From a virus (lineage: Duplodnaviria; Caudoviricetes): 64,000 bases of DNA. The notes under the pieces were generated by a model. The model ran no database searches. It was not told the DNA's origin and saw only the letters and a program-made list of their open reading frames with translations. Shown here in pieces: positions 5,301-57,572 of this stretch (the stretch's first letter is position 1; every line of letters starts with the position of its first letter). Location: positions 1 through 64,000 of the IMG/VR virus record IMGVR_UViG_3300003523_000012. The stretch is one strand, 5' to 3'. Position numbers and translations under genes: made by a program.

Positions 5301-5418
5301 TCATTACAGCAAGATGTTCTTTCTTGGTTGAGAACGCATCATTTATAGCGGTCAAGATCTTGAGATTAGTGTTTGTCAAGTCTTGAAGTCTGTAAAGATA
5401 GTCAGTGATGTTTGCCAT
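2302..5418 (-). CDS. Large virion structural protein (1038 aa, central coiled coil)
   Basis: Long ORF with coiled-coil segment, between endolysin and gp15-like gene. Confidence 0.55.
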   Translation of the reverse strand: MANITDYLYRLQDLTNTNLKILTAINDAFSTKKEHLAVMIGTKRYIIPSYIALENKVDQLQADFENLVSIPKTGEAAITFDENTQKIRLLGYSNCPEEQKLTPVTTFFSEKADILKDFMTPAPYVKLNLSNLTENASWVNVKKIAARNLDMVAAIQQMQNGGVMKWEDMAHILYNYEEDKDYVEYDTLKRLPLKDNTPYGTYTVRQVKQQWIDDNFEEHYVLEFNEDLTYTAQNQSVEFDIEVGDFLVMNDDTVKLLVESVEPAVRTLTCKVLYGAYAEIHDITQGDDKCKLRYFKQRDYTQFKYIDVPLEEDQHVCIFASAINDEMNIQAPWGEGLYINTDELTINLNGDIVNFRDYYNDYVNNIGDTLFGITDMVRNTINNIHKDEFDRILASQPVLVPSNFDVVQINKHLDDSDTVQNIRRLYSQKSQYKTDLQGVLNSIANIQKILSSISFDDSESNRQLYESQLTEWNAKKIELNNSIASISQEIAQAANDTELPIDGAKFHIRGFVEEYPADLPKPIRIDCEYRYKNKARYAGNASSIGENIFSDWNRMVSITDMRHPSTDGFTFFYEYNENTSIKNEPSWNQIDIPISQGELVDFRVRYIYDLGWPFIETTSQWSEIMQIEFPEKFVKQVSILDIIEENNNDVKEYQFESLLLEKGIPEHVEDKVRDNDVTYFHKPEHISSGFYTEERRIIPLKDKLQMIDSSIYDLQAEVLGWQSQNLIVTLSDNMQAQNISPYIENYFECTDYSSNEHKADNTVFNILEQTPTNKEVAYTQLELSIYNAGEYSTKLYTMFPGAYTEILKQEARSKFLASDYVLATDSSTHEPVGGVWMKVDDPTENAILQHHNQWMYWRMNSIYDGSPYYDDQTTSNIDSGRTGKIKATKEAIPSTWDSLNPPTHGTMNNYITIYPYIGDITAICIDANDMYKTLNPGESITIPLSVYYFFSDQNVTHLERTMSFDLRTSLYTDPVNYIFTIGVSRTSDVYQKVKKENAMKQVSKTPYQSVVVKQVETQTKAKRGNQISGVVNQNKNRR

Positions 5419-5507
5419 TTCTTATATATCTTTTATTAGTTATAAAATAAAAAAACGAAGTATATTACTTAATATACTTCGCTGGAATGAATGAGTAAAG
5501 ATTTTGC

Positions 5508-32540: not shown

Positions 32541-32568
32541 GTTAATCTTCCAAGAGTTGAATTATATT
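32541..32568 (+). promoter_or_regulatory. GTTAA-N17-TATATT phage promoter
   Basis: Exact motif, 30 nt before ATG 32599. Confidence 0.7.
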
Positions 32569-44269: not shown

Positions 44270-47149
44270 ATGATTTTAGATTATACTTTTTCAAAGCAAG
44301 ACAAGAGATTTGAAGTCTCTTACATTACTGAGAAAGGTCAGAAGTCATTCCTTACTTTTGATAACCTGAGTCGGTTCAAGACTTACTACTACACACCAGC
44401 AGGAGAGTTTGACACTTATGATGGAGCAAAAGCAGGGATATGCTATACTGACTCTCCAAGCAAGTTTGACATCAAGGAGTATCTCACAGAGCTTCCTGAC
44501 CAATACAAAAGCTTGATCTCACAAAAAACTTATCCTAAGTTGTACACATTCGATATTGAGACCAAGATCTCTGAGACTGGTGAGTTCCCAGACCCAGCAA
44601 TAGCAAAGCAAGAGATCACAACTATATCTGTTGTGTCTCCAGATTTGAATGCTATAGTGTTTGGAACTAAGGCATTGAGTCAAGAAGAGCTAGCTTATTG
44701 TGAGAAGTCATTCAAGGAATATGTAGAAGCTAATGAATTCTTCCAGACTTTGAAGAAACCTACTCCAACATTCAAATACATATTATGTGACAATGAGAAA
44801 GAGATGTTGAGATTATTCTTGACAAGGATAGTTGCAAAAGTCTCAATATTAGCTGGTTGGAACTCAATATTGTTTGACTGGCAATATATAGTGAATCGTA
44901 TAAAGAACAATTATCCAATGCTTTCTCTTAAGTTAGCTAGTTGCACTAAACAATTGACTAAGAAGAGATTCACATCTCGCTTGGGTGATAAGATTGATCT
45001 TCCTATGCCAGTTCACACTCTTATTCTGGATATGATGGACATCATCAAAGATGACATCACAATCATGCCAATCAAAGAGTCACTTGGACTTGACTATATA
45101 GCTTCAGAGTCAGTGAAAGCTAACAAGATCAAGTATGATGGGACACTTCAAGACTTGTATAACAATGACTATAAGAATTATGTGTTCTACAACTGCATCG
45201 ACTCTGTGTTGGTACAATTGATAGACTATAGGTTCCGTTGTCTTGAACTTTATTACCAATATGCTTTGTATTGCAATGAGAAGATAGGGAACTGCTTCTC
45301 TCCTATTGCTCTTACTGAGTCATTAGTGTTCAAAGACTTCTATGAGAATGGAGTCAAGATTGTGTATCAGAAAGCTGAGACACCAGAAAGAACACCATTG
45401 ATTGGTGCATATGTAAAAGTCCCAATTCCTGGCAAATACAAGTTCATATGCTGCAATGACTTTGCTTCTCTGTATCCATCAACAATCATCACATGCAACA
45501 TCTCATTTGAGAACTATGTTGGTGCATTCTATGATGAAGCTAAGCTTGAGTATTTCAGAAAGCAAGAAGGAAAATATCTGATCATTGGTGGGCAAGTCTA
45601 CAAGAATGATGGGAAACCAAATAAGCCATCAATTGGTGAGTTTATTGGAAACTTCATTGATGAGAAGAGACTAGAGAAGTACAAGAAAGACAAGAACTAC
45701 TTTGTCAGTGTGAATGGACACGTGTATAGAAATGACAAAGAGTACACATTCAAGAGAATCCAAAGAAAACTTAAAGCTGAGAGGAACATTGACAAGTATC
45801 TTGGCAAGAAGATTGAAGCAGAAGTAGTTACAGATATCAGACATCTCATAAAAGGTGCGGATGAGAAGCTCCATACTTATGAAGCAGACATTATAGAGTC
45901 ATTAGAGCAGCTTGGATATAAAGGATATTCTTGTGGTGAAGACTTTAGAAAGCTTTCTGTTGAAGAGTTGAAAGATGCTGAGAGAATAATCTACGCAGAG
46001 TGCAAGTTCAAAGAGTCACATCAGATGGCTATGAAGTTGCTAGGTAACTCAATGTACGGAGGATGCTCACATGTTGCTTTCTATTTCTATAATATGAACT
46101 TAGCAAATGATATCACTGGTGAAGCAAGAAATGTGATTCACATGATGGAGCATCATATTCCTAAGTTCTTTGAAGACAATTGGTTTGATATGAAAGAAGA
46201 GCACAAGAGATGGGGCATTGAAGTAGACCAGTCACTTAGAGGCAAAGTCAAGAATTTGTGTATACCTATATATGGTGATACTGATTCTATATATTCATCT
46301 TACCAGAATCTGCTCAAGACTATTAAAGGAATTGACAAGATGACGGATTCAGAAAAATTGAACATCATCTTGAATTTGAACACAGACTTCTTGGACAAGC
46401 ACAATTTTGAGTATATGAGAGACTATTATGCAAAAAGATTTGTAGATTCTGTCCAGAATTTTGAATTAGAGACAATTGCCTCATCTGGAGTGTGGCTCAC
46501 ATCTAAAAAGAAGTATGCACAGATACTCCTATGGAAAGATGGAACGTTCTATGATGCAGATGATCTCCCAATGAAGATCAAAGGATTGGAAGTTGTGAAG
46601 TCTAGCACATCTAAAGTGGCTAGAACTCAACTCAAAGAGATCATTCGAAGACTTCTTGAGATTAATGACACACCAGAGAATGAGACTCAACTGATGAACA
46701 TTGAAGTCCAGAAAAAGAAAAATGAGTTCTTGAAGTGTGATGTTGAGTCAGTTAGTGGAAGCTGCAATGTGAACACTTATAGAAATTATGTCATATCTGA
46801 TGATGGAGATCAGCCAGAGTTCAGGCCAAAAGTCCCATACAATGTTCGTGCATTAGCTTTATATAACAACATTATCAAGAAAAAGCACTTCAAAGAAGAG
46901 CCAATCTATGCTGGAAAGCTCAAATGGTACATTGTGAAATCTAGAATGAAAACTAAAGACACTCAATATTTTGCATTCCAGTCAAAGAATCTTCCAGATT
47001 GGAGTCAAGACTTTGCACCGATAGACAAAAAGACTATGTTCCAAAAGCAAGTGCTAGACCCATTCAATAGGATCTTGGAATCAATTGGCTATAAGAAACT
47101 TGAGATTGATGGCAATATCCAAACAGATCTGTTTTCACTATTCATGTAG
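44270..47149 (+). CDS. Family B DNA polymerase (T4 gp43-like)
   Basis: Exo FDIET, GWNSILFD, YNCID; pol DFASLYPS, KLLGNSMYG, YGDTDS, KKKYA. Confidence 0.96.
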   Translation: MILDYTFSKQDKRFEVSYITEKGQKSFLTFDNLSRFKTYYYTPAGEFDTYDGAKAGICYTDSPSKFDIKEYLTELPDQYKSLISQKTYPKLYTFDIETKISETGEFPDPAIAKQEITTISVVSPDLNAIVFGTKALSQEELAYCEKSFKEYVEANEFFQTLKKPTPTFKYILCDNEKEMLRLFLTRIVAKVSILAGWNSILFDWQYIVNRIKNNYPMLSLKLASCTKQLTKKRFTSRLGDKIDLPMPVHTLILDMMDIIKDDITIMPIKESLGLDYIASESVKANKIKYDGTLQDLYNNDYKNYVFYNCIDSVLVQLIDYRFRCLELYYQYALYCNEKIGNCFSPIALTESLVFKDFYENGVKIVYQKAETPERTPLIGAYVKVPIPGKYKFICCNDFASLYPSTIITCNISFENYVGAFYDEAKLEYFRKQEGKYLIIGGQVYKNDGKPNKPSIGEFIGNFIDEKRLEKYKKDKNYFVSVNGHVYRNDKEYTFKRIQRKLKAERNIDKYLGKKIEAEVVTDIRHLIKGADEKLHTYEADIIESLEQLGYKGYSCGEDFRKLSVEELKDAERIIYAECKFKESHQMAMKLLGNSMYGGCSHVAFYFYNMNLANDITGEARNVIHMMEHHIPKFFEDNWFDMKEEHKRWGIEVDQSLRGKVKNLCIPIYGDTDSIYSSYQNLLKTIKGIDKMTDSEKLNIILNLNTDFLDKHNFEYMRDYYAKRFVDSVQNFELETIASSGVWLTSKKKYAQILLWKDGTFYDADDLPMKIKGLEVVKSSTSKVARTQLKEIIRRLLEINDTPENETQLMNIEVQKKKNEFLKCDVESVSGSCNVNTYRNYVISDDGDQPEFRPKVPYNVRALALYNNIIKKKHFKEEPIYAGKLKWYIVKSRMKTKDTQYFAFQSKNLPDWSQDFAPIDKKTMFQKQVLDPFNRILESIGYKKLEIDGNIQTDLFSLFM

Positions 47150-47224
47150 AAAAATTTAATTATTAAAAATCATAGCTTATTATATATCTTGAATTATAAC
47201 AAAAGAAATTTTAATTCCTTTTCA

Positions 47225-47311
47225 ATGACACAAAACTTGCACATAGCAGCCAATATTTATCGCCCAAGTTCACTTAATACAGAATTTGGCAAAGATTGGT
47301 CTATGCTATAG
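47225..47311 (+). CDS. Putative 28-aa attenuator leader peptide MTQNLHIAANIYRPSSLNTEFGKDWSML
   Basis: Short ORF whose TAG overlaps the anti-terminator strand GGGCAGG. Confidence 0.6.
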   Translation: MTQNLHIAANIYRPSSLNTEFGKDWSML

Positions 47312-47342
47312 GGCAGGTGGATGTGATTATATAATATCTCTT

Positions 47343-47372
47343 AAGCCTGCCCAGAAATGAGCAGGTTTTTTT
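47343..47372 (+). terminator. Attenuator terminator with alternative anti-terminator pairing
   Basis: AAGCCTGCCCA-GAAA-TGAGCAGGTTT plus U-tract; CCTGCCC (47346-52) is complementary to GGGCAGG (47311-17). Confidence 0.75.
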
Positions 47373-47434
47373 GTTGTTAAATACCAAAAGGATTGAGATA
47401 TATTAGAACCGTTGACGAATGATAAACAACACTC

Positions 47435-47462
47435 GTTAACTCTAAAGAAACTGAAATATATT
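47435..47462 (+). promoter_or_regulatory. GTTAA-N17-TATATT promoter of tRNA array block 1
   Basis: Exact motif. Confidence 0.7.
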
Positions 47463-47494: not shown

Positions 47495-47518
47495 GTTCTT
47501 TGACATATTGGCTAGAAT
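47495..47518 (+). promoter_or_regulatory. boxA-like antitermination site (copy 1)
   Basis: GTTCTTTGACATATTGGCTAGAAT; repeated with 1 mismatch at 51943. Confidence 0.7.
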
Positions 47519-47708
47519 GCATGAATGAAAGAAAATTATTTGGGTGAACCTGAATGAGGAAATGAATTTGATCTGAAAAGATCTACTTATTCAGGAGCCC
47601 TTCACCCATCACAATAGCATTGTTTGGTTGATGCCGCCGAGGGAGGTATCACGGTTCATATAGAACTCTGAACGGTCTGCTTGCCGGTGTCAAGAACAAT
47701 GCTCATAT

Positions 47709-47793
47709 GCGCCCGTAGCTCAGTTGGTTTGCGAAAGCTTAGAGTACGTGACTTTTAATCTCGGGGTCGTGGGTTCGAGTCCCACTGGGCGCA
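47709..47793 (+). tRNA. tRNA-Lys(UUU) with extra hairpin in D-loop
   Basis: Cloverleaf; loop CTTTTAA. Confidence 0.85.
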
Positions 47794-47796
47794 CAA

Positions 47797-47875
47797 AAGG
47801 CAGCTGACGAGCACTCGGTAGTGCATTGCCTTCGAAAGAAGCGAAGGTACGGTTCAACTCCGTCTCAGAGGCCTT
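47797..47875 (+). ncRNA. tRNA-like RNA, no canonical anticodon loop
   Basis: D-arm GCAC/GTGC, T-arm ACGG-TTCAACT-CCGT, terminal AAGGC/GCCTT. Confidence 0.55.
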
Positions 47876-47879
47876 ATTT

Positions 47880-47954
47880 GGGGGAGTAGCTTCAATCGGT
47901 TAGAGCGGCGGCCTGTTAAGCCGATGGTTGTGGGTTCGAGTCCCACCTCCCCCG
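47880..47954 (+). tRNA. tRNA-Asn(GUU)
   Basis: Cloverleaf; loop CTGTTAA. Confidence 0.9.
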
Positions 47955-47967
47955 CAAAAAAAAAAAT

Positions 47968-48050
47968 GGGAGTGCGCCAACGATGGTGAGTTGGGGCGGA
48001 CTGTAAATCCGTTGCCTTAGGCTTAGTAGGTTCGAATCCTACCACTCCCA
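47968..48050 (+). tRNA. tRNA-Tyr(GUA)
   Basis: Loop CTGTAAA; long variable arm. Confidence 0.9.
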
Positions 48051-48069
48051 CGAAATTAATAAGAATAAT

Positions 48070-48142
48070 GGAGCTCTGGTGTAACTGGTGTGCTCGCTGG
48101 ACTGAAAATCCAGAGGTCGTCGTTCGAATCGGCGGGGCTCCA
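48070..48142 (+). tRNA. tRNA-Phe(GAA)
   Basis: Loop CTGAAAA. Confidence 0.9.
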
Positions 48143-48145
48143 CTA

Positions 48146-48354
48146 AAGTCAAGAACAGACCACCAAGTAGCGATCGGGGTAAGTCTTATAATAATGTCGA
48201 CTTAGTTTGAGATGTTGTCTCGGAGCGTAAGAGCTGCCGTCAGCCCGATGAACGGTGTTGGTATCGTGAGGTGCCATAGGATGCAACGCAACAGTGCAGT
48301 TTGTGAAGAGCATATAATCAATACACTGCCATTGCTCGTAAATTTTCTTGACTT
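48146..48354 (+). ncRNA. Unassigned structured ncRNA (~210 nt)
   Basis: Closed by perfect AAGTCAAGAA/TTCTTGACTT stem; GC-rich interior; no ORF. Confidence 0.55.
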
Positions 48355-48360
48355 ATTTTT

Positions 48361-48435
48361 AGGGAGTTAGCTCAGAGAGAAGAGTGTCACTGAACGTGGA
48401 GGTGAAGGTCGGTGGTTCGATTCCATCACTCCCAA
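48361..48435 (+). tRNA. Atypical tRNA, anticodon undetermined
   Basis: Acceptor GGGAGT/ACTCCC and normal T-arm; enlarged anticodon loop; no D-loop GG. Confidence 0.5.
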
Positions 48436-48662
48436 CAAATGTCTTTCTTTGGTGTAATCTTGCAATGAATTAGTTACACTTGAACCAGATTATCAAACAC
48501 CGGTTGTAGATATTCTAAGTTTGGTGTGACATGTTCAAAACTGATCCAGAGAGTTTTGTGAGAAGCGGCCGCTTCTCACACGACACGAAGAGTACCAGAA
48601 TAGCATACCTGTCATGGGACAGGAGATGAGATAGCAGTAATGTCTCAAGTTAGACTTTTTTT

Positions 48663-48746
48663 GGAGAATTAACTGCAGCGGCCTGCAGACCGGTCTTGAA
48701 AACCGTGGGAGTGTAACAGCTTGGGGATCGACACCTCAGTTCTCCG
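48663..48746 (+). tRNA. tRNA-Ser(UGA)
   Basis: Loop CTTGAAA; long variable arm; G73. Confidence 0.85.
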
Positions 48747-48756
48747 CAAATATTTT

Positions 48757-48830
48757 GGACCTATAGTCCCAGTGGTCTAGGATGCCTGACTGTCTATCAG
48801 GAGGCCCGGGTTCGAGTCCCGGTAGGTCCG
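48757..48830 (+). tRNA. tRNA-Asp(GUC)
   Basis: Loop CTGTCTA. Confidence 0.9.
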
Positions 48831-48836
48831 CTTTTT

Positions 48837-48909
48837 GCCGGTATAGCTCAATTGGCAGAGCGCCGCATTTGTAATGCGATGGTTGTGGGTTCGATTCCCT
48901 CTACCGGCT
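48837..48909 (+). tRNA. tRNA-Thr(UGU)
   Basis: Loop TTTGTAA. Confidence 0.9.
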
Positions 48910-48915
48910 CAAAAT

Positions 48916-48974
48916 GGAAGTCATACAGCAAATCTTAAAAACTTCTAATGGTGTAGAAAAGAAAATTGACTTCT
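48916..48974 (+). ncRNA. Free-standing ACAGCAA stem-loop module
   Basis: GGAAGTCA-TACAGCAA-loop-TGACTTCT. Confidence 0.7.
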
Positions 48975-48979
48975 GAATT

Positions 48980-49052
48980 GCCTTTGTAGCTCAATAGGTA
49001 GAGCTGGATCCTCTTAAGATCAGGGCTAAGGGTTCGAGTCCCTTCGAAGGCA
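48980..49052 (+). tRNA. tRNA-Lys(CUU)
   Basis: Loop CTCTTAA. Confidence 0.85.
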
Positions 49053-49058
49053 CAAAAT

Positions 49059-49133
49059 GGTCCCTTAGCTCAGTTTGGTTAGAGCGCCTGACTCATAATC
49101 AGATGGTCGTAGGTTCAAGTCCTACAGGGACCA
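49059..49133 (+). tRNA. tRNA(CAU), probably Ile2 (lysidine type)
   Basis: Loop CTCATAA; GGTCCCT acceptor similar to Ile2 tRNAs. Confidence 0.8.
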
Positions 49134-49146
49134 CAAAAATAAACAT

Positions 49147-49221
49147 TGCGGGATAGAGCAGTGGTCTTAGCTCGTCAGGCTCATAACCTGGAGGTCGGGG
49201 GTTCGAATCCCTCTCCCGCTA
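49147..49221 (+). tRNA. tRNA-fMet(CAU)
   Basis: Unpaired 1:72; GCGGGA acceptor; loop CTCATAA. Confidence 0.85.
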
Positions 49222-49227
49222 CAAAAT

Positions 49228-49301
49228 GGGCCCATAGTGATAGTTGGTTAGCACGGAAGCTTTGCAAGCTTTTAGCCTGGGTTCGAGTCCCAGTGGGTCC
49301 A
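49228..49301 (+). tRNA. tRNA-Ala(UGC)
   Basis: Loop TTTGCAA; G3-U70. Confidence 0.9.
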
Positions 49302-49310
49302 CAAGAACAT

Positions 49311-49382
49311 GGGTCTTTAGTATAATTGGTAGTATGGTGGTCTCCAAAACCATTGGTTGAGGTTCGAATCCTTGAGGGCCTG
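49311..49382 (+). tRNA. tRNA-Trp(CCA)
   Basis: Loop CTCCAAA. Confidence 0.9.
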
Positions 49383-49388
49383 CAATAT

Positions 49389-49495
49389 TACAATATGGTG
49401 TAATGGTAACACACTCCTCATGCGGGATCGGATCGCGCACCGAATGAAGTTCTTAAATGAGCTAAGAGATGTGGGTTCAACCCCCACTATTGTAT
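49389..49495 (+). ncRNA. tRNA-like RNA with structured insert replacing the anticodon loop
   Basis: TACAATA/TATTGTA acceptor, GTGT/ACAC D-arm, GTGGG/CCCAC T-arm. Confidence 0.65.
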
Positions 49496-49501
49496 CAAAT
49501 T

Positions 49502-49579
49502 ATGTCTAACAAATTAAATTCAAAAAAGATGAAAAAGTACACACAACTGTAGGTTTGTATCTTAGATGTTCCTCCGTAA
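49502..49579 (+). other. Putative uORF with internal amber codon and Pro-Pro-stop end
   Basis: MSNKLNSKKMKKYTQL*(TAG 49550)VCILDVPP*(TAA). Confidence 0.45.
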
Positions 49580-49645
49580 TTAAGATGATTTTCTATTAAA
49601 AGTAATCAATTCAAAAATTCATTATTCAAATAAAAAATCATCAAA

Positions 49646-50068
49646 ATGAAAAAAGAACAATTTTTAAGATTCAAAGAAGACCTCAAGAAAGAGGCAAAAG
49701 AGCAAAAAGAATTAAAGAACCAAAGAAAATTTGTCCACATTAAAGGTAAGAGGACAATTAATCCTTATGATGCAGCTTGGAAAGTAAGATCGAATAGATG
49801 GGAGCTTGATAAGAAGTATGTCATCTATTATATCTTTAAACATAGAATTGAGGTGACATCATACAACAAGGAACAGGTAATCTGGGATGCATATGTGAAA
49901 CTGCATCAGCAATACAGTACCGCTCGCAGAGAACTCACTCTGACAAACGGCAAGAAGCAAATTAGTTATTACATCGACGCTCCAGACGGCCGTGACTACA
50001 CTCCTGAGGATGCAATGTATGATTTGATCAAAAGATATGACAAGATTATCAAACAATATGGGAACTAA
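49646..50068 (+). CDS. Hypothetical basic protein upstream of Pth2-like gene
   Basis: 140-aa ORF. Confidence 0.7.
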   Translation: MKKEQFLRFKEDLKKEAKEQKELKNQRKFVHIKGKRTINPYDAAWKVRSNRWELDKKYVIYYIFKHRIEVTSYNKEQVIWDAYVKLHQQYSTARRELTLTNGKKQISYYIDAPDGRDYTPEDAMYDLIKRYDKIIKQYGN

Positions 50069-50366
50069 TCATTAGAAAAAATCTCGCCTTTACGTGATCA
50101 TTGATGAATCTTTAGATCCTATATATGGATGTGTTCAAGGTGGACATGCTGTTGCTCAATATCTCTTAGAGAATCCTGATTCCAAATGGAAGAACAATTA
50201 TCTTATCTATTTGAAAGCTAATTTAGAAAGAATTGTTGTTAAACTCCAAAGATATGGAATATGTTATACTGAGTTCCACGAACCAGACCTGGATGGGAAG
50301 CTCACTGCAATAGCGGTGCTTGACAATCAAAAGGTCTTTAGGAATCTACATTTAATAGGAAGCTAA
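50058..50366 (+). CDS. Peptidyl-tRNA hydrolase 2 (Pth2)-like protein with in-frame TAG at 50073-75
   Basis: RLYVIIDESL...VQGGHAVAQY...LIYL...EFHEPDLDGKLTAIA; ATG 50058 is in frame with the called GTG 50094. Confidence 0.7.
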
Positions 50367-50380
50367 GGCTTGTATTAAAT

Positions 50381-50406
50381 AAAAAGGGAGCTAAGGCTCC
50401 CGATTT
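50381..50406 (+). terminator. Hairpin (terminator or processing site)
   Basis: GGGAGC-taag-GCTCCC. Confidence 0.45.
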
Positions 50407-50478
50407 GCTCGGTTAGTTCAATTGGCAGAACAAGTGGCCCTAACCCACATGACACGGGTTCGAACCCTGTACCGGGCA
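50407..50478 (+). tRNA. Probable amber suppressor tRNA (CUA), atypical C33
   Basis: GCTCGGT/ACCGGGC acceptor; GTGG-CCCTAAC-CCAC anticodon arm puts CTA at 34-36. Confidence 0.65.
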
Positions 50479-50487
50479 CATTTTTAT

Positions 50488-50560
50488 GGCGCCATCGTCT
50501 AGAGGCCTAGGACACCAGATTTTCATTCTGGGAACCCCGATTCGAATTCGGGTGGTGCTA
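50488..50560 (+). tRNA. tRNA-Glu(UUC)
   Basis: Loop TTTTCAT. Confidence 0.88.
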
Positions 50561-50702
50561 CAAAGAATATAAGATTGCAGCAATACTAGTTAGGCTGGTC
50601 TTTCCGTGAGAGTCGGACGTATATCCTGCAACGATAGCGATGATCCCGACGCATTGGTTGGTGTAGCAAAGGACGTCCAGAGGTAGCTCCTCTGGAATTA
50701 AA

Positions 50703-50775
50703 CTTCCTATAGTTCAATGGATTAGAACGTAGGTCTACGGAACCTTAGATGGGGGTTCGAGTCCCTCTAGGAAGA
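50703..50775 (+). tRNA. tRNA-Arg(ACG)
   Basis: Loop CTACGGA. Confidence 0.88.
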
Positions 50776-50784
50776 CTAACATAT

Positions 50785-50858
50785 TGCGGGATGGACTGGA
50801 GAGGTTCCAGCTGGGTCTCATAAGCCCAATGACGGGGGTTCGATTCCCTCTCCCGCTA
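50785..50858 (+). tRNA. tRNA(CAU), second initiator-like
   Basis: Unpaired 1:72; GCGGGA acceptor; loop CTCATAA. Confidence 0.8.
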
Positions 50859-50995
50859 CTAATTCATCTATACCGATAATTCAGTTGATAATTCTAGATG
50901 AGTCTTCTGATGTTGGGGGTTACTAGTGGATGTATTGACGAGTATATAAGCTAGTTATAAAAAACGTGGTTCGATACCTCAATAGGTGGCTAATT

Positions 50996-51086
50996 AGAGA
51001 GATACCCAAGTTGGTGAAGGGACCAGTTTGCTAAACTGGCAGGGCAGCTAATCACTGTCGCGTGGGTTCGAGCCCCACTCTCTCTG
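50996..51086 (+). tRNA. tRNA-Ser(GCU)
   Basis: Loop TTGCTAA; long variable arm. Confidence 0.9.
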
Positions 51087-51099
51087 CAAAGAATTATAT

Positions 51100-51224
51100 G
51101 GGGCGGTGGTGAAATTAGTAAAAAAGCTCCACTGCATGAATGGTGGTGATACTGCAAAGATTAAAAGGTATACACACAAATTCTGTTAAATTTGAAAATG
51201 TTGGTTCGAGTCCAACCCGCCCCA
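51100..51224 (+). ncRNA. tRNA-like RNA with ~50-nt D-loop insert (hairpin + ACTGCAA)
   Basis: GGGGCGG/CCGCCCC acceptor, normal T-arm, GTG...CAC D-stem split by insert. Confidence 0.7.
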
Positions 51225-51229
51225 CTTAT

Positions 51230-51353
51230 AGGGAGATAGTGTAATGTATGGTAGCACGCGTTAATTTTATGACTTTTAATATGAAAGTCTAACAGCAATT
51301 AATGTAAATGTCTTTGGTGTAACGTAGTGAAGGTTCGAATCCTTCTCTCCCTG
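51230..51353 (+). ncRNA. tRNA-like RNA with ACAGCAA module inserted at the anticodon loop
   Basis: AGGGAGA/TCTCCCT; CGTTA/TAACG anticodon stem enclosing GACTTT/AAAGTC-TAACAGCAA. Confidence 0.75.
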
Positions 51354-51358
51354 CTAAC

Positions 51359-51479
51359 CATGCAGTAGCTCAGTTGGTAGAGCACGTTTTTTGTGACTCT
51401 TGTAGAAGCGTGAGTCCTACAGCAATTGATTTTTGTCCTTCCAAGACCGGGGTCGTGGGTTCGAGTCCCACCTGCATGG
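51359..51479 (+). ncRNA. tRNA(UCC)-like RNA with 48-nt ACAGCAA insert between positions 28/29
   Basis: Removing 51387-51434 restores CGGTC-CTTCCAA-GACCG. Confidence 0.8.
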
Positions 51480-51487
51480 CTTTATAT

Positions 51488-51561
51488 GGTGTTAGTAGCT
51501 CAGTTGGTAGAGCGCTAGATTGTGGTTCTAGTGGTCGCAGGTTCGATCCCTGTCTAACACA
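51488..51561 (+). tRNA. tRNA-His(GUG)
   Basis: G-1 present; loop TTGTGGT. Confidence 0.88.
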
Positions 51562-51571
51562 CAAATCAAAA

Positions 51572-51678
51572 TGAGACTGGTTGGAGGCATTGGCCTCATT
51601 CGGCGCTCTTCAATTGAAGAGAGACATCCGGCGCGAACTTGGTCAGGAAAGGACGTGAGTAACACGGAATCAGTCTCA
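51572..51678 (+). ncRNA. Unassigned structured ncRNA (~107 nt)
   Basis: TGAGACTGGTT/AATCAGTCTCA closing stem with internal hairpins. Confidence 0.5.
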
Positions 51679-51682
51679 AATT

Positions 51683-51756
51683 GCGGGAGTAGCTCAGTTG
51701 GCTAGAGCGGAACCTTGCCAAGGTCCAGGTCGGGGGTTCGAGTCCCCTCTCCCGCT
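51683..51756 (+). tRNA. tRNA-Gly(GCC)
   Basis: Loop TTGCCAA. Confidence 0.92.
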
Positions 51757-51758
51757 CA

Positions 51759-51861
51759 AATTCGCCGATAGGCATATCCTAGGCCGCCTCTGATGGCGGA
51801 ATAACCAGTATCTTATATAATTTATCATCTCAAGAATAAACCGCCATCAGGCGGAAAATTT
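51759..51861. repeat. Dispersed element copy E
   Basis: CTGATGGCGG...CCGCCATCAG arms; left 30 bp is the reverse complement of copy D's right end. Confidence 0.88.
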
Positions 51862-51867
51862 ATTGGT

Positions 51868-51895
51868 GTTAACTTCTGAAATTGTTGTATATATT
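51868..51895 (+). promoter_or_regulatory. GTTAA-N17-TATATT promoter of tRNA array block 2
   Basis: Exact motif. Confidence 0.7.
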
Positions 51896-51942
51896 ATGAT
51901 TGCTGAGGTAAATAACTATACTGAAGCAATTATTATACATAA

Positions 51943-51966
51943 GTTCTTTGACATACTGGCTAGAAT
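51943..51966 (+). promoter_or_regulatory. boxA-like antitermination site (copy 2)
   Basis: GTTCTTTGACATACTGGCTAGAAT. Confidence 0.7.
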
Positions 51967-52109
51967 TAAAGATATCCGAAAAGGGATCGGGAGGTTCTCA
52001 CAAACCAGAAACCCTGAGGCTGATGGTCCAGAATTGCGAGAGCAATTCTGGACCATCAGTCGACAGCTCACTGGGTAATTCCCAAGGAACGCTGTTAGGC
52101 GAGAAATAT

Positions 52110-52181
52110 TGAGCTGTGGTATAATTGGCAACACGTCGGGTTTTGGTCCCGAAGTTCTGGGTTCGAGTCCCGGCAGCTCAA
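52110..52181 (+). tRNA. tRNA-Gln(UUG)
   Basis: Loop TTTTGGT. Confidence 0.88.
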
Positions 52182-52188
52182 CAAAAAT

Positions 52189-52261
52189 GTCCGAGTGTCC
52201 GAATTGGCTTAGGTGACGGTCTGCAAAACCGTCTATGCAGGTTCAAGTCCTGTCTCGGACT
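52189..52261 (+). tRNA. tRNA-Cys(GCA)
   Basis: Loop CTGCAAA; U73. Confidence 0.9.
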
Positions 52262-52277
52262 CTTAGGAAAATAATAT

Positions 52278-52352
52278 GCGCAGGTAGCTCAGTTGGTTTA
52301 GAGCACTTGTCTGATACACAAGAGGTCGAAGGTTCGATTCCTTCTCTGCGCA
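52278..52352 (+). tRNA. tRNA-Ile(GAU)
   Basis: Loop CTGATAC. Confidence 0.88.
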
Positions 52353-52358
52353 CTGAAT

Positions 52359-52423
52359 GGAAGCCTTACAGCAAATTTTTCAGCACTAATTTATAAACTA
52401 GGAACGCTTAAAATGGGGCTTCT
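52359..52423 (+). ncRNA. Free-standing ACAGCAA stem-loop module
   Basis: GGAAGCCT-TACAGCAA-loop-GGGCTTCT. Confidence 0.7.
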
Positions 52424-52429
52424 GAACTT

Positions 52430-52501
52430 GCGGGTATAGCACAACGGTTAGTGTAAGAGATTTCCAATCTTTTGATGTGGGTTCGATTCCCATTACCCGC
52501 T
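52430..52501 (+). tRNA. tRNA-Gly(UCC)
   Basis: Loop TTTCCAA. Confidence 0.9.
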
Positions 52502-52509
52502 CTAGAGGT

Positions 52510-52978
52510 GAAATGATATACCCTCTCAATGATGGCAGTGTAACGTGTTGCACATACTTGTGAGTGGATGAGTCCCATCATTGCCCTGATCTAGGATCAG
52601 TTTCCATATTTTATACACAACTCCATTTCGGCAATACATTCCTCGAAGCCGTTATCACACATAAGACAAACCAGAGAAGGAGAGAGGGCGATGCAATGGT
52701 TGAAGCGATGAATTATATAAAGAGACTAAGAATGACACTCATTGGACGTATAAGAAGTCCCTTGAGAAAGATACTCAGTGTGCCTCGAGAGAGTGTATCA
52801 TTAAAAGGTAAAAGCCGTGAACAGGTGTGTGGAGTTCTCAAGTGAAAAATTCCGTAATTAGCGGTAGAGAGAATATAAGCACCACGGATGTAGCACTGAT
52901 TGAATGCTAGACAAATCGATAGGGGTTCTACCTCATCCCCGATAATCAGTCTGGATTCTGACTGGTGAGTGTCATTTC
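52510..52978 (+). ncRNA. Large structured ncRNA (~470 nt), candidate ROOL/GOLLD-class or new
   Basis: GAAATGATAT/GTGTCATTTC closing stem, several internal helices, flanked by tRNAs. Confidence 0.6.
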
Positions 52979-52986
52979 TTTTTTAT

Positions 52987-53060
52987 GCACTTGTAGCCCA
53001 ACTGGCAGAGGCCTATGACTTAGGATCATAAAAGTGTGAGTTCGAATCTCACCAGGTGCA
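52987..53060 (+). tRNA. tRNA-Leu(UAG), short variable arm
   Basis: Loop CTTAGGA. Confidence 0.85.
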
Positions 53061-53064
53061 CTAT

Positions 53065-53138
53065 GTTCCAGTAGCCCAACTGGCAGAGGCAATAGTTTGA
53101 GGGACTATACAGTGGCAGTTCGAATCTGCCTTGGAACA
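53065..53138 (+). tRNA. tRNA-Leu(GAG), short variable arm
   Basis: Loop TTGAGGG. Confidence 0.85.
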
Positions 53139-53149
53139 CAAATTAATAT

Positions 53150-53222
53150 CTAGGTGTAATTCAGTTGGTAGAATGCTAGAATTGGGATCTAGTTGTCGTC
53201 CGTTCGAGTCGGATCACCTAGA
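53150..53222 (+). tRNA. tRNA-Pro(UGG)
   Basis: Loop ATTGGGA. Confidence 0.85.
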
Positions 53223-53278
53223 CGAAGAGATGTCAAGCTCGAGTTAAAAAATTTCGACAAATTGTTTATTATCATAAT

Positions 53279-54262
53279 ATGATGGATAAAAAAGTATTTG
53301 AAATATTTAACTCGAGCTATTCAAAAATAGAATTGTGTAAAAATCTTGATTTAGATGTATCTCACATGAATGGAAGTAATGTTGATAAATTACTAAATAA
53401 GATTATGAAAGATTCTGATTTTGAAATGGATATTACTGCTAACGGTTTTAAAGAAAGGCGTTTAGCCAGAGAAAAAAAGAAATGGGAAAAAGAACAACCA
53501 AAATGTAAATTTTGTGGAAAAGTTCTTCCATTTGAAAGAAGATTTAATAAATTTTGTAGTTCTAGTTGTTCTGCTAAAAGTGGAAATAAACAAAGAGCTA
53601 AAAATGGTTATACTTCAAAAGGTAAAACAAAAAAAGTTAATTGTTTAAAGTGTAATAAAGAAATTGAAGTAAATATCAATTGTGGACAAAAATCTTATTT
53701 TTGTAAAGAGTGTAGACCTAAATCTGTAAATAGTCTTAGACTAATTGAACATACTTGTATAATTTGTGGAAAAAAATATTTTACTAAAAGATATATTTCT
53801 AATCATTGCTCACCAAAATGTTCAGCAGCAGATCCAAACATTAGAAAAAAGATTAGTGAAACTCAATTACAACACGTAAAAGATGGAACTCATAAAGGTT
53901 GGACATCTAGAAATATTAGATCTTATCCTGAAAAATTCTTTGAACAAGTATTAAAGAATAATTTTATAGAATTCAAACAAGAAGTCTATATAGAAAAATT
54001 CAAATATTTCTTAGATTTTCTTATAGAAATTGGTAATAATAAAATTGATCTTGAAATAGATGGTAAACAGCATAAATATGATGATAGAAAAGATAAAGAT
54101 GTTGAAAGAGATCAAAATCTTAAAAATGCTGGATATATCATTTATAGAATAGAATGGAATGAGATAAATTCTAAAGAAGGTAAGACAAAAATGAAAGAGA
54201 AAATTAATAAATTTTTAGAGTTTATTGAACAATATAAATTAGCCCAGTACTCCAATAGGTAG
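53279..54262 (+). CDS. Free-standing putative homing endonuclease (zinc ribbons + DUF559/Vsr-like nuclease)
   Basis: CxxC repeats; YFLDF..LEIDGKQH...D.ERD..L...GY.I.RI.W; lower GC than neighbours. Confidence 0.8.
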   Translation: MMDKKVFEIFNSSYSKIELCKNLDLDVSHMNGSNVDKLLNKIMKDSDFEMDITANGFKERRLAREKKKWEKEQPKCKFCGKVLPFERRFNKFCSSSCSAKSGNKQRAKNGYTSKGKTKKVNCLKCNKEIEVNINCGQKSYFCKECRPKSVNSLRLIEHTCIICGKKYFTKRYISNHCSPKCSAADPNIRKKISETQLQHVKDGTHKGWTSRNIRSYPEKFFEQVLKNNFIEFKQEVYIEKFKYFLDFLIEIGNNKIDLEIDGKQHKYDDRKDKDVERDQNLKNAGYIIYRIEWNEINSKEGKTKMKEKINKFLEFIEQYKLAQYSNR

Positions 54263-54314
54263 AGGGAGTCGGCTCAAACCCGATACAGTGTGAGTTCGAA
54301 TCTCACCTGGGCTA
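54241..54314 (+). tRNA. tRNA-Leu(CAA), short variable arm
   Basis: Loop CTCAAAC; 5' end overlaps endonuclease ORF. Confidence 0.8.
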
Positions 54315-54317
54315 CAA

Positions 54318-54506
54318 ACAGAATACCTATCTGCAATAGGCATGATACATTCACAGCAATGCTTTATCCCAGAAGGTGTAACTCAAATGGACTAGAGTCT
54401 TGACATCCTGAAGAATAGCAGCTCTTTTTAGGGAAGTGTCATAGAGATCCGGGTTCGAATCCCGGCACCCTCAGATCTTAGATCCTTTATAATGTATTGA
54501 TTCTGT
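54318..54506 (+). ncRNA. ACAGCAA stem enclosing a tRNA-like domain (54372-54473)
   Basis: ACAGAAT/ATTCTGT and GATACATT/AATGTATT stems; inner D-arm, elongated anticodon arm, CCGGG-TTCGAAT-CCCGG. Confidence 0.7.
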
Positions 54507-54513
54507 ATTTTTT

Positions 54514-54587
54514 GTCGGTGTAGCGGAGCTGGTTTCTTGCGCCGCTCTCATAAGGCGGAGACGGTGGTTCGATTCCACCCACCGGCA
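54514..54587 (+). tRNA. tRNA-Met(CAU), elongator-like
   Basis: Loop CTCATAA; paired 1:72. Confidence 0.8.
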
Positions 54588-54592
54588 CGAAA

Positions 54593-54694
54593 GTGAAAAA
54601 AGCTATGGCATGTAGCTCAGTTGGTAGAGTGGACAATATCTTGTCAGGTCGCTAGTTCAAGTCTAGCCATGATAAATAGTTTGTATCGCTTCAC
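54593..54694 (+). ncRNA. tRNA-mimic (D and T arms, 4-nt anticodon loop) on an extended stem, YrlA-like architecture
   Basis: TAGCTCAGTTGGTAGAGT, GACAA-TATC-TTGTC, GCTAG-TTCAAGT-CTAGC; outer GTGAA/TTCAC and AGCTAT/ATAGTT. Confidence 0.6.
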
Positions 54695-54731
54695 ATGGTA
54701 CCTAGTCGTTGTGATACACGCTTTCTCGCGA

Positions 54732-54805
54732 GGGCTGTTAGTTTAGCTTGGTAAGAATATCTGGCTTACATCCAGGAGACTACGGTTCAAATCCGTGACG
54801 GCCCA
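54732..54805 (+). tRNA. tRNA-Val(UAC)
   Basis: Loop CTTACAT. Confidence 0.88.
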
Positions 54806-54930
54806 CTATTAAAAGTAGGACAGTTAGTTAACGGCTAATTGAGATTGATTCCATATAAATCTCTAACTACTTTTGTTATTTTATATATAAGGTTACCGTT
54901 AATAACCTTATTCAATAAAGTTAAAAAAAT

Positions 54931-55857
54931 ATGGACAATCAAAAATTTATTTGTGAAAATTGCGGTTTAGAACATAATAGAAGTTATGGTTCTGGACGTT
55001 TTTGCTCTGAAAAATGTGCTAAAAGTTATTCAACTAAAAATGAATCTAAAAAATTAAAAGAAGCAAATTGTATTATTTGTGGAAGAAAAATACACATAAA
55101 TAAAAGAGCATCAACAAAAACTTGCAAATGTGAAAAATGTCAAAAACTACATCATAAACCATCTGATTTAAAAATATGTAAGATATGTGGTAAGAAATAC
55201 TATAAACAAGATGGATGTTCAAATCAATTTTGTAAAAATCATAATTTAAATGGATTCAAACTACTTATACAATATTTTGGATTTGATGAATCAAAACTTG
55301 GTACTATAGAAGTTGAAAATGAATTTTTAAGAATTAAGAATTTGATACATAATTTATACTGGAAAGATAATTTATCCAGTAAAGATATAGCTGAAAAATT
55401 TAACTTTAAAAGCAAACATTCACTTATTCAAACAGTATTCAAGTTTTTAGATATACCATCTAGAAATTTTAAACAATCAACTTCAAATGCTTACTATACT
55501 AGAAAAATGTGTAGTATTTTAAAAAATCAATATAAATCAGAATGGCATACAACATGGAATGGAAAAGAAGTTTATCTTAGAAGTTCATTTGAAAGTGATT
55601 ATGCTAAAGAATTAGATGCCAATGAAATTGATTATGATGTTGAATACCTTAGAATAAAATATTTCAATACTAATAAAAATGAGTATAGATGTGCAATACC
55701 AGATTTTTATCTTCCAGAAACAAATACAATTGTTGAAATAAAATCTAATTGGACATTAAATATTCAAGAAATGAAAGATAAAAAGAAAGCGTATTTGGAA
55801 CAAGGATATAATTTTAAATTGATTCTTGATCATAAAGAAATAGATTTGCCTTTGTAG
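54931..55857 (+). CDS. Free-standing putative homing endonuclease (zinc ribbons + TnsA-like PD-(D/E)XK domain)
   Basis: CxxC repeats; YLRSSFE...YDVE..IKY...IPDFYL....IVEIKS. Confidence 0.8.
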   Translation: MDNQKFICENCGLEHNRSYGSGRFCSEKCAKSYSTKNESKKLKEANCIICGRKIHINKRASTKTCKCEKCQKLHHKPSDLKICKICGKKYYKQDGCSNQFCKNHNLNGFKLLIQYFGFDESKLGTIEVENEFLRIKNLIHNLYWKDNLSSKDIAEKFNFKSKHSLIQTVFKFLDIPSRNFKQSTSNAYYTRKMCSILKNQYKSEWHTTWNGKEVYLRSSFESDYAKELDANEIDYDVEYLRIKYFNTNKNEYRCAIPDFYLPETNTIVEIKSNWTLNIQEMKDKKKAYLEQGYNFKLILDHKEIDLPL

Positions 55858-55920
55858 CTTAATCGGTAGAGCAGCTGTTTAGTAATCAGCAGGTCGTGGG
55901 TTCAAATCCCTCCATCGGCT
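55848..55920 (+). tRNA. tRNA-Thr(AGU), two acceptor-stem mismatches
   Basis: Loop TTAGTAA; GCCTTTG vs CATCGGC. Confidence 0.7.
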
Positions 55921-55924
55921 CAAA

Positions 55925-56265
55925 GCTGGCGTCAATGACGCTCTGGTGAAAGGATGTTTGGACGAGGGTTCGACTCCCTCCGGGTCCACTATGATTCTAT
56001 AGAATCACAATTAGCTTATCAACCAAGATGTTGAGAAAGTTAAGATTTGCGAGAACTTAATATGAGACTCGTGATTCAGCGCACTAGCCGGCTGCGTAAT
56101 TGCTGGCTTTATAATTGGGCCCGTTTGGTTTTGACAGCATTTGAGTAAGAAGAGAAGAGATGCTGGTGAGTAAGAATAATTCACAAATCTTACACAACTC
56201 GTCTTGCTGCGTAGTCTAGGACTATAGCAATGAGAGGTCTAGGGTGGCACCAAAGTCCACCCATT
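55925..56265 (+). ncRNA. ssrA: Circularly permuted (two-piece) tmRNA
   Basis: Acceptor piece ends GAGGG-TTCGACT-CCCTC-CGGGTCC-A (55988). Coding piece starts GGGCCCG-TTTGGTTTTGACAGC (56117), giving G3-U70. Tag ...HKSYTTRLAA* ends 56214. Outer boundaries approximate. Confidence 0.85.
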
Positions 56266-56269
56266 TTTT

Positions 56270-56343
56270 GGCTCGGTAGCCCAACTGGCAGAGGCATCAG
56301 ACTTAAACCCTGTATAGTGTGAGTTCGAATCTCACTCGGGCCA
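56270..56343 (+). tRNA. tRNA-Leu(UAA), short variable arm
   Basis: Loop CTTAAAC. Confidence 0.82.
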
Positions 56344-56353
56344 CTTTTTTCTC

Positions 56354-56381
56354 GTTAACTTCTATCTTATTGATATATATT
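56354..56381 (+). promoter_or_regulatory. GTTAA-N17-TATATT phage promoter
   Basis: Exact motif upstream of ATG 56412. Confidence 0.7.
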
Positions 56382-56411
56382 AGACATGTAATAACCAATA
56401 ATATTAAGAAT

Positions 56412-56711
56412 ATGAATGTATATAGAATTATTAGTAGATGTAAAGTATCAGATTGGGGATGCCATGATTTCTCTGTTGAGACTGAGGTCTATGACTCTGT
56501 TGAAGAAGCAAAAGAGGACTATCCTAAATTTGATGAGACTTCTTCACGTGCTATTGAAGAGTATGATATGGAAGAGTACTATATACTTGGAACAGCTAAG
56601 CAAATCCAAGACACTTATGACCGTGGCAAATGGTATGATTTGTGTGGTGATGAAGATGAGATTGAAGCTCATGCGAAAGAGTTCACTTATGAAGTCGATA
56701 ACCTTGAATAG
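56412..56711 (+). CDS. Acidic hypothetical protein (start MNVYRI)
   Basis: Start moved downstream of tRNA and promoter. Confidence 0.65.
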   Translation: MNVYRIISRCKVSDWGCHDFSVETEVYDSVEEAKEDYPKFDETSSRAIEEYDMEEYYILGTAKQIQDTYDRGKWYDLCGDEDEIEAHAKEFTYEVDNLE

Positions 56712-56737
56712 TAAAAATATTAAGTCATGTGCAAGTT

Positions 56738-57007
56738 ATGAAATCAATATTAAAATTTATTAATGAATCTGAAAAGAAATATGATAATTTTCTTAATTTG
56801 CCTCCTATAACAGAATTAGGAGATGGTGAATATGATTGTGCTATTTGGGGACACAGTGTTGCTTATGACGGTAAGAAATATTATTCAGAAATTGGTATAA
56901 TGAATATTTATCCTATCAAGATAAAGATAATCATCAAAGATAAAAAAGAAAGATTTGGAGATTCAGATAATCTTCAAAGAGCGGAATTAAAAAAACTTTT
57001 CGATTAA
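56738..57007 (+). CDS. Small protein with capsid-targeting-like N-terminus
   Basis: MKSILKFINESE. Confidence 0.6.
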   Translation: MKSILKFINESEKKYDNFLNLPPITELGDGEYDCAIWGHSVAYDGKKYYSEIGIMNIYPIKIKIIIKDKKERFGDSDNLQRAELKKLFD

Positions 57008-57090
57008 TTATAATCACTATCAAATCTATATAGTTAGAAATGGTGGGAAGAAATTGAAAAGCAAAAGTTGAACTAATAAAAATAAAGACT

Positions 57091-57366
57091 ATGTGCAAAT
57101 ATTGTGAAGCTTTGACATCGGACAAGATGGATTCATACCATCACAAATATAGAGAATTACTTCCTATCACTACCGATACTAGAGACTATAGTGAGTATGA
57201 TTCAATGGCAGTAATCATGCCTCCAACACCTATCTCTTTGAGACGACATGAAGAAGATGGTTTGGTATCTAATTTGAATGTGTTCTTCTATGATGATCAT
57301 GCACGAGTGGTGAACTTTTGGATCCCTATCAAGTATTGCCCAATGTGTGGAAAGGAGATACAATAG
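57091..57366 (+). CDS. Zinc-finger phage protein
   Basis: MCKYC...IKYCPMCGK. Confidence 0.7.
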   Translation: MCKYCEALTSDKMDSYHHKYRELLPITTDTRDYSEYDSMAVIMPPTPISLRRHEEDGLVSNLNVFFYDDHARVVNFWIPIKYCPMCGKEIQ

Positions 57367-57427
57367 ATTTTAGAAATTCTTAAAAATAGAAGATGTTTGG
57401 AAAAGAAAAGGAAGTAAAATATAATAT

Positions 57428-57499
57428 GCCCTTGTAGTTCAATAGATAGAATAGCGGTCTTCTAAACCGTTGATAGGAGTGCAATTCTTCTCAGGGGTA
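57428..57499 (+). tRNA. tRNA-Arg(UCU)
   Basis: Loop CTTCTAA; atypical T-loop. Confidence 0.75.
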
Positions 57500-57572
57500 C
57501 TAACAGATCCAATTATATGGATCAAAAATAGAATCATGTTAAATTCTAGCCAGTAATGTATATATTATAAGC

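Follow-up and report, generated by a model that had tools for sequence, protein, structure and literature searches.

The stretch of DNA analysed here (hereafter the window) comprises the initial 64 kb of an IMG/VR phage record with a length of 93.9 kb and has a G+C content of 35%. Its plus strand carries a gene for a family B DNA polymerase (polB, 44270–47149), which contains the Pfam DNA_pol_B and exonuclease domains and has relatives with 48–98% identity, including those designated P0001–P0008 and P0012 at 82–98%. An intein domain (PF14890) is present in some of the polB relatives (P0007, P0008, P0045, P0057 and P0081) and absent from the polB of the window. On the same strand, polB is followed by a tRNA array (47717–57500) of at least 32 tRNA genes, including a CUA amber suppressor and a permuted tmRNA. 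The first block of the array (47717–51757), identified with ARAGORN and Rfam, contains 16 distinct anticodons, one of which belongs to the amber suppressor (anticodon CUA, 50407–50479). The second block (52110–57500, plus strand) contains 13 distinct anticodons, with endonuclease-like ORFs and the permuted tmRNA (Rfam RF04321, 55929–56214, plus strand; 56.8 bits, threshold 47) in between. The ORFs at 53279–54262, 54931–55857 and 57823–59124 in the array region encode a DUF559/REase-like protein, an endonuclease I-like protein and a DUF7788/DUF2828 protein, respectively. Rfam additionally gave tRNA or tRNA-Sec-like matches that were not called by ARAGORN (48361–48435, 48662–48746, 49389–49495, 51230–51353, 51359–51479 and 54372–54473), several of which span 100–124 nt, i.e. 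are tRNA-like RNAs with insertions.

The gap between polB and the first tRNA is 570 nt long and contains a short leader ORF and the elements of a putative switch. The leader ORF (47225–47311, plus strand) consists of 28 codons and a TAG stop and reads MTQNLHIAANIYRPSSLNTEFGKDWSML. Re-reading of the sequence confirmed the composition given in a preliminary description of the window, namely 18 amino acids, Cys and Val being absent, encoded by 25 different codons. As many as 18 amino acids are reached by only 0.5% of the stop-free 28-codon windows in the phage genome, and the ORF ties for the top diversity among 208 ATG ORFs of 24–32 codons, a rank that, on its own, could be a post-hoc extreme. 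Minimum-energy folds predict a hairpin within the ORF (approximately 47266–47291), which does not pair with the anti-terminator strand described below. No Shine-Dalgarno sequence was found ahead of any gene of this phage, nor before the leader ORF, and its absence from the leader is uninformative with regard to translation because no gene of the phage has one. The regions upstream of the phage genes are rich in A and T, a feature shared with Bacteroidota and their phages.

No convincing promoter was found ahead of the leader in the window. An AT-rich island, TTATTATATATC (47177–47188, plus strand), is an uncertain candidate for the -10/-7 box of a leader promoter. In an alignment, the island is kept in L019, a 203-kb contig from a metagenome scan whose polB is 57% identical to that of the window; the L019 copy, TATATTTG, is a perfect Bacteroidetes -7 box located 16 nt before the ATG, whereas the window copy is imperfect. 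Since only the L019 copy of the conserved island is a perfect -7 box, the leader of the window may be transcribed from polB, the transcript of which may run on into the leader.

Downstream of the ORF lies a predicted intrinsic terminator (47343–47372, plus strand), composed of a hairpin with a GAAA loop (AAGCCTGC..GCAGGTTT, 47343–47368; -12.3 kcal/mol, z -3.1) and seven T residues (47366–47372). A simple terminator scan overlooked this hairpin because the stem is interrupted. The 5' strand of the predicted anti-terminator, GGGCAGGT (47311–47318, plus strand), has as its first base the last base of the TAG stop. Its proposed pairing with GCCTGCCC (47345–47352) in the 5' arm of the terminator was recovered as the minimum-energy fold, and the hairpin computed for the RNA before the 3' arm of the terminator is transcribed has a free energy of -19.6 kcal/mol (z -3.4). 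The 3' strand of the anti-terminator, GCCTGCCC, sits inside the 5' arm of the terminator, and the two hairpins are therefore mutually exclusive.

The choice between the two hairpins was modelled by blocking part of the RNA to simulate a ribosome, the size of whose footprint was assumed. Both the free RNA and the RNA on which a ribosome had stalled eight codons early folded into the anti-terminator, with no terminator pairs. With the ribosome at the stop codon, the pairing of GGGCAGGT was lost and 10 terminator pairs formed; the terminator appeared only if the first 60 nt of the fold were masked. According to these constrained folds and the assumed footprint, the end of the ORF is positioned so that a terminating ribosome would mask the anti-terminator. 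A hairpin equivalent to region 1:2 of trp, which would act upstream as a pause or anti-anti-terminator element, was not identified at the leader of the window, and an untranslated leader would therefore be read through by default. Two assignments to structured RNAs were rejected. The Rfam Trp_leader model (RF00513) scored 23.7 bits against a gathering threshold of 41, and its match comprised the terminator and one TGG. A structured non-coding RNA in the small-ORF region was discarded given that RNAalifold returned the terminator only, the indels are multiples of three and no Rfam family matched.

The segment between the terminator and the first tRNA contains two copies of the motif GTTAA-N16-19-TATATT. 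The 94-kb genome contains 13 copies of this motif, compared with 3.9 expected, and most of them immediately precede genes. The motif differs from the Bacteroidetes TTTG/TAnnTTTG consensus and may therefore mark a phage-specific transcription class. One copy (GTTAA-N18-TATATT, 47376–47404, plus strand) is located immediately 3' of the terminator. The other (GTTAAC-N16-TATATT, 47435–47462, plus strand) had been singled out in the preliminary description as a separate promoter motif and is genuine, as it belongs to the enriched set and is kept in L019, where GTTAAC-N17-TATATT is followed by ACACTG. Other copies are found in the window at 32541, 33361, 56354 and 57538, on its minus strand at 32315, 31716, 29613 and 10705, and elsewhere in the genome at 66041 and 90716.

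A 17-mer further downstream, GTTCTTTGACATATTGG (47495–47511, plus strand), contains a match to boxA, an element that acts on RNA: GTTCTTTGACA agrees at 10 of 11 positions with the consensus GYTCTTTAANA (PMC5725501). The exact 17-mer is present in the 16S-23S spacer of two Bacteroidales genomes, after the spacer tRNAs and approximately 45 nt before the 23S rRNA. On account of the consensus match and this position, it was assigned as a host rRNA antitermination site, and an interpretation as a promoter was dropped. The 17-mer points to a Bacteroidales-like host. Because boxA works on RNA, the transcripts must begin upstream of it. A second promoter motif, again GTTAA-N16-19-TATATT (51868–51895), and a second boxA, GTTCTTTGACATACTGG (51943–51959), both on the plus strand, head the second tRNA block. 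To judge from these motifs, the array appears to have its own promoter-plus-boxA units, resembling small rRNA operons. A G+C-rich hairpin repeat, CCGCC..GGCGG, is found at 51785–51800 and 51841–51854, where the two copies precede the second promoter and could pair mutually (TGATGGCGG with CCGCCATCA), and a third copy on the minus strand near 59.9 kb (approximately 59880) is followed by a T run. Between the first boxA and the first tRNA there is an untranslated, hairpin-rich stretch of approximately 200 nt (47512–47716, plus strand) with a long hairpin (GGGTGAACCTGAAT...ATTCAGGAGCCCTTCACCC, approximately 47543–47610) and a second paired stretch. It belongs to no Rfam family and gave weak Rfam matches only, one of which, to the DUF2693 RNA, involves the boxA letters alone.

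The arrangement downstream of the terminator bears on what the putative switch could control. The preliminary description had it turning on the complete tRNA set of the phage, and this part of the proposal did not stand: the switch is not the sole gate, given the promoter motifs at 47376, 47435 and 51868 and the boxA elements downstream. Since two promoter motifs and a boxA separate the terminator from the tRNAs, the array of the window is independent of read-through, and an attenuator at this site, if operative, could do no more than add or suppress the contribution of read-through to the transcription of the array. The intervening motifs at 47376 and 47435 distinguish the window from several other phage loci, where there is no space for an intervening promoter.

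L019 allowed the arrangement to be compared over a considerable evolutionary distance. After its polB, this contig carries an extra 145-aa gene and then a 29-codon ORF, an anti-terminator, a terminator, a T run, a promoter motif, a boxA and tRNAs, in this order. The promoter motif is the GTTAAC-N17-TATATT copy mentioned above, and the boxA is identical to GTTCTTTGACATATTGG. The L019 leader ORF uses 19 of the 20 amino acids and ends in TAG; its diversity against its own background (P approximately 0.003–0.005) is an independent test of the claim of codon diversity. Its anti-terminator, a 9-bp hairpin formed by TGCAGACTT and AAGTCTGCA, begins 5 nt past the stop, is unrelated in sequence to that of the window and competes with the terminator (-17 kcal/mol) for AAGTCT, the terminator being thermodynamically preferred in this case. 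Only 5 of 29 residues are identical between the two leader peptides. The layout has thus been kept between the window and L019 despite the divergence of both peptide and anti-terminator sequences, and covariation for the window's leader is drawn from this one distant relative. Searches based on polB yielded, among viral contigs, only relatives not exceeding 51% identity, most of which lack neighbouring tRNAs, and, among genome contigs, two loci, both lacking tRNAs.

Both leaders end in TAG, a stop used by only 20 of the 104 long ORFs of the window's phage, and both arrays encode a tRNA-CUA (15803–15874 in L019, where the incomplete array has 27 tRNAs). These coincidences would be accounted for if the switch reported amber suppression rather than general decoding speed, with read-through of the TAG moving the ribosome 4–5 codons across the anti-terminator strand. 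In the window, read-through would add GGC AGG TGG ATG before a TGA (47324–47326), and in L019 it would add four codons before TAG TAA. A ribosome at the TAG or at the next stop would, however, cover GGGCAGGT alike, and the outcome should not change; furthermore, most other leaders of the class described below end in TAA or TGA. We consider a report of amber suppression very improbable.

The boxA sequence was then used as an anchor among viral contigs. The 16-mer TTCTTTGACATATTGG is present in more than 115 of them, mostly 5–20 nt upstream of tRNAs or non-coding RNAs; in many cases a terminator or the 3' end of a tRNA immediately precedes it. The 16-mer is also located directly before several conserved unnamed RNAs, e.g. 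at approximately 15 loci that continue with taaaatggtgttttggaag. This distribution suggests that the borrowing of Nus antitermination for untranslated RNA genes is widespread among phages. A gapped promoter-plus-boxA pattern searched across viral contigs gave only chance matches inside genes. A scan with our own script covered 106 non-redundant viral boxA sites with at least 300 nt upstream, of which 49 have a terminator within 190 nt upstream. An ATG ORF of 20–60 codons ending 8–45 nt before the hairpin accompanies 43 of these 49 terminators, compared with approximately five expected from shuffles, and 32 of the 43 ORFs start with MK. The ORFs form 27 peptide clusters that are mutually unrelated in sequence, although they may share deeper ancestry and are hence incompletely independent. 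In one contig (L024), a GOLLD RNA (5010–5434; 270 bits) precedes, by approximately 100 nt, a module composed of a 28-codon leader ORF, a terminator, a boxA and a tRNA array.

Many of these leaders appear to have promoters of their own: a perfect Bacteroidetes -7 box, TAnnTTTG, is present within 100 nt upstream in 11 of the 27 clusters (1.5 expected), and the full TTG-N17-23-TAnnTTTG in eight (0.1 expected). At several loci only 2–5 nt separate the end of the terminator from boxA, and in the largest leader family the first tRNA begins 6–14 nt past the T run. As there is no space for a second promoter at such tight loci, polymerase must cross the terminator there. The sequence preceding the terminators is enriched in complementarity to the 5' arm (mean z -2.5), with 54% of the modules having p values of 0.05 or less. 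Ten clusters have z values of -2.5 or below, and in each of them the anti-terminator strand lies between -32 and +13 nt from the stop codon, and the weaker cases also concentrate near the stop codon. No significant anti-terminator was found in the largest leader family (10 members). An upstream ORF of similar length and diversity and covarying hairpins are kept in L019, and the layout recurs upstream of tRNA arrays in many Bacteroidota-type phages.

The largest leader family also indicates how the ORFs evolve. Every indel in this family is a multiple of three, the ratio of synonymous to nonsynonymous single-base differences is 108:251 and entropy is flat across codon positions. RNAalifold detected no conserved structure in this family (family A) besides the terminator. 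A conserved frame combined with a free peptide is what characterizes an ORF that matters for being translated rather than for its product. The small ORF could instead encode a functional micro-protein, with the strand overlap serving the stability or translational control of its own mRNA rather than the tRNAs. Many leaders do have their own promoter and an MK start, as in well-expressed genes, and the residues H, P, W and Y recur within families A and E. A product under selection is nevertheless difficult to reconcile with the near-neutral substitution pattern and with the few identities between the window and L019 peptides. In addition, 27 unrelated clusters share position, length, codon match (see below) and anti-terminator geometry, and several loci have boxA or a tRNA right after the terminator, with no space for a promoter. 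A micro-protein is therefore an unlikely explanation.

The codons of the leaders provide a further line of evidence. Across the class, amino-acid diversity is elevated (mean z +1.2, positive in 24 of 27 clusters, p approximately 7e-7), and one 31-residue leader contains all 20 amino acids. The idea that the window's leader samples the tRNA pool was upheld and can be stated more precisely, in that the tRNAs sampled are those of the phage itself. Of the 28 anticodons in the array, 21 read codons of the leader, compared with 14.3 +/- 2.0 for 28-codon windows taken from the phage's own genes (P approximately 3e-4). The leader uses 14 of the 16 anticodons in the first block (14 of the 15 sense anticodons), plus the reader of ATA, and the CUA suppressor of this block is the counterpart of the leader's TAG stop. 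Several of its codons are rare in the phage genes, where CGC accounts for 4% of the Arg codons, GGC for 13% of the Gly codons, GCC for 6% of the Ala codons and CTA for 11% of the Leu codons. Three of these match tRNAs of the phage, namely CGC (Arg-ACG), GGC (Gly-GCC) and CTA (Leu-UAG). The three Leu codons of the leader call three different phage Leu tRNAs.

Similar matches were observed elsewhere. Of the 22 anticodons seen in the incomplete L019 array, the leader calls on 18, a number that no null window reaches, and codon match exceeds that of phage gene windows in all 23 evaluable clusters (mean z +2.4). When diversity was controlled for in a cross-match between leaders and arrays, the own leader ranked first of 21 for nine arrays and among the top three for 14; the window's leader ranked first of 21 against its own first tRNA block. 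The leader thus carries putative regulatory codons in a modified form, with no codon run but with a match to the tRNAs of the array.

These results can be set against the simplest account of the locus, in which the hairpin is a constitutive polB terminator, the small ORF is there by chance and the array is driven solely by its own promoters. The two recurrent promoter motifs and the boxA downstream of the terminator speak for this account, some ORF among the 208 must be the most diverse, and the Trp_leader score is below its threshold. It leaves unexplained, however, why L019, where an extra 145-aa gene follows polB, retains an ORF with its TAG, a terminator and an anti-terminator unrelated in sequence, why such ORFs precede 43 of 49 comparable terminators, and why the codons of the ORF match the phage's own tRNAs. 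A plain terminator preceded by a chance ORF is thus quite improbable. The layout of an attenuator that had been proposed, i.e. a short ORF, an anti-terminator masked at the stop and a terminator, is present, and its reading as an attenuator is supported by sequence comparison. We conclude that a ribosome-mediated (leader-peptide) transcription attenuator probably heads the tRNA array of this phage.

The analysis shows the parts of the switch, the competition between their predicted folds, the conservation of these features and the match in codons. The mechanism that we infer from them would depend on translation of the ORF, the geometry of the ribosome footprint and timing. Polymerase would arrive on the polB transcript or from a weak promoter approximately 40 nt before the ATG and transcribe the 28-codon ORF, which would serve as a test ORF. 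A prompt ribosome sitting on the TAG would cover GGGCAGGT, allowing the terminator (47343–47368) to form and transcription to stop at the T run. A ribosome delayed within approximately the first 22 codons, or one that never starts, would leave GGGCAGGT free to pair with GCCTGCCC, and polymerase would read on. The boxA at 47495 on the transcript should then load Nus factors, by which polymerase would be carried through the long untranslated tRNA array. Written in the codons of the phage tRNAs, the test ORF would monitor decoding speed and feed back on tRNA transcription, which would increase when decoding is slow, and the loop would be self-limiting because the leader codons are those served by the phage tRNAs. 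Starvation, codon mismatch and tRNA-cleaving defences would be plausible triggers.

Extended to the class as a whole, this model suggests that Bacteroidota-type phages carry a general decoding homeostat, consisting of a codon-matched test ORF, a terminator/anti-terminator switch and a boxA borrowed from rRNA operons, a generalization towards which the evidence leans slightly. If the generalization is correct, transcription of tRNA arrays should rise when decoding slows, be it through codon-usage mismatch, starvation or tRNA-cleaving host defences. Phage tRNA arrays are common, and their proposed roles include compensation for codon usage and replacement of tRNAs destroyed during infection or by anticodon nucleases, roles which all predict that supply should track demand. 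To our knowledge, little has been established about how these arrays are regulated, and we found no description of such control of tRNA genes in the literature on the boxA motif and on leader peptides before phage tRNA arrays. The attenuator, if real, would be the first described sensor to close the supply-demand loop for phage tRNAs, and leader-peptide attenuation, known from amino-acid biosynthesis, would then also apply to the decoding machinery. The design is compact (approximately 150 nt), and the borrowed host rRNA boxA would protect the long untranslated arrays.

Several known systems resemble the putative switch in part. The boxA has counterparts in the Nus-factor antitermination sites of the rrn leader and spacer and in lambda nut sites; the 17-mer is identical to the Bacteroidales rRNA spacer element and is located ahead of long untranslated RNA genes. 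The phage copy differs in serving tRNA and non-coding RNA arrays behind a terminator gate, with putative binding of NusB/S10. T-box riboswitches resemble the proposed attenuator in coupling tRNA status to the choice between terminator and anti-terminator, but they bind one uncharged tRNA directly, without a ribosome, and control genes for aminoacyl-tRNA synthetases and amino acids, mainly in Firmicutes; neither T-box features nor a T-box match in Rfam were found at the window's leader.

In architecture, the putative switch resembles the enterobacterial trpL, hisL, thrL, ilvL and pheL leaders, in which a short leader ORF is likewise followed by two alternative hairpins, terminator and anti-terminator, with one strand in common, and the anti-terminator is masked once a ribosome has reached the end of the ORF. 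As in these attenuators of amino-acid operons, slow decoding is proposed to lead to read-through. Classical attenuator leaders are enriched in one amino acid, whereas the phage leader has no run of a single codon and contains approximately one codon for each of many tRNAs. It further differs in the absence of a detectable 1:2 pause hairpin, such that the default without translation would be read-through, in an output of tRNAs rather than enzymes, in the boxA located downstream and in its setting in a phage with a Bacteroidota-type host.

The vmlR, bmrCD and lmo0919 leaders, identified by Term-seq, are ribosome-mediated attenuators that respond to translation inhibitors. They share with the phage leader a short ORF without bias towards a single amino acid, and any stall in it blocks the terminator and turns on the downstream genes, as proposed for the phage. 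They serve antibiotic-resistance proteins in Firmicutes in response to drugs, whereas the output of the phage attenuator would be the decoding machinery itself, and the phage ORF, unlike those leaders, is matched to the set of tRNAs encoded downstream.
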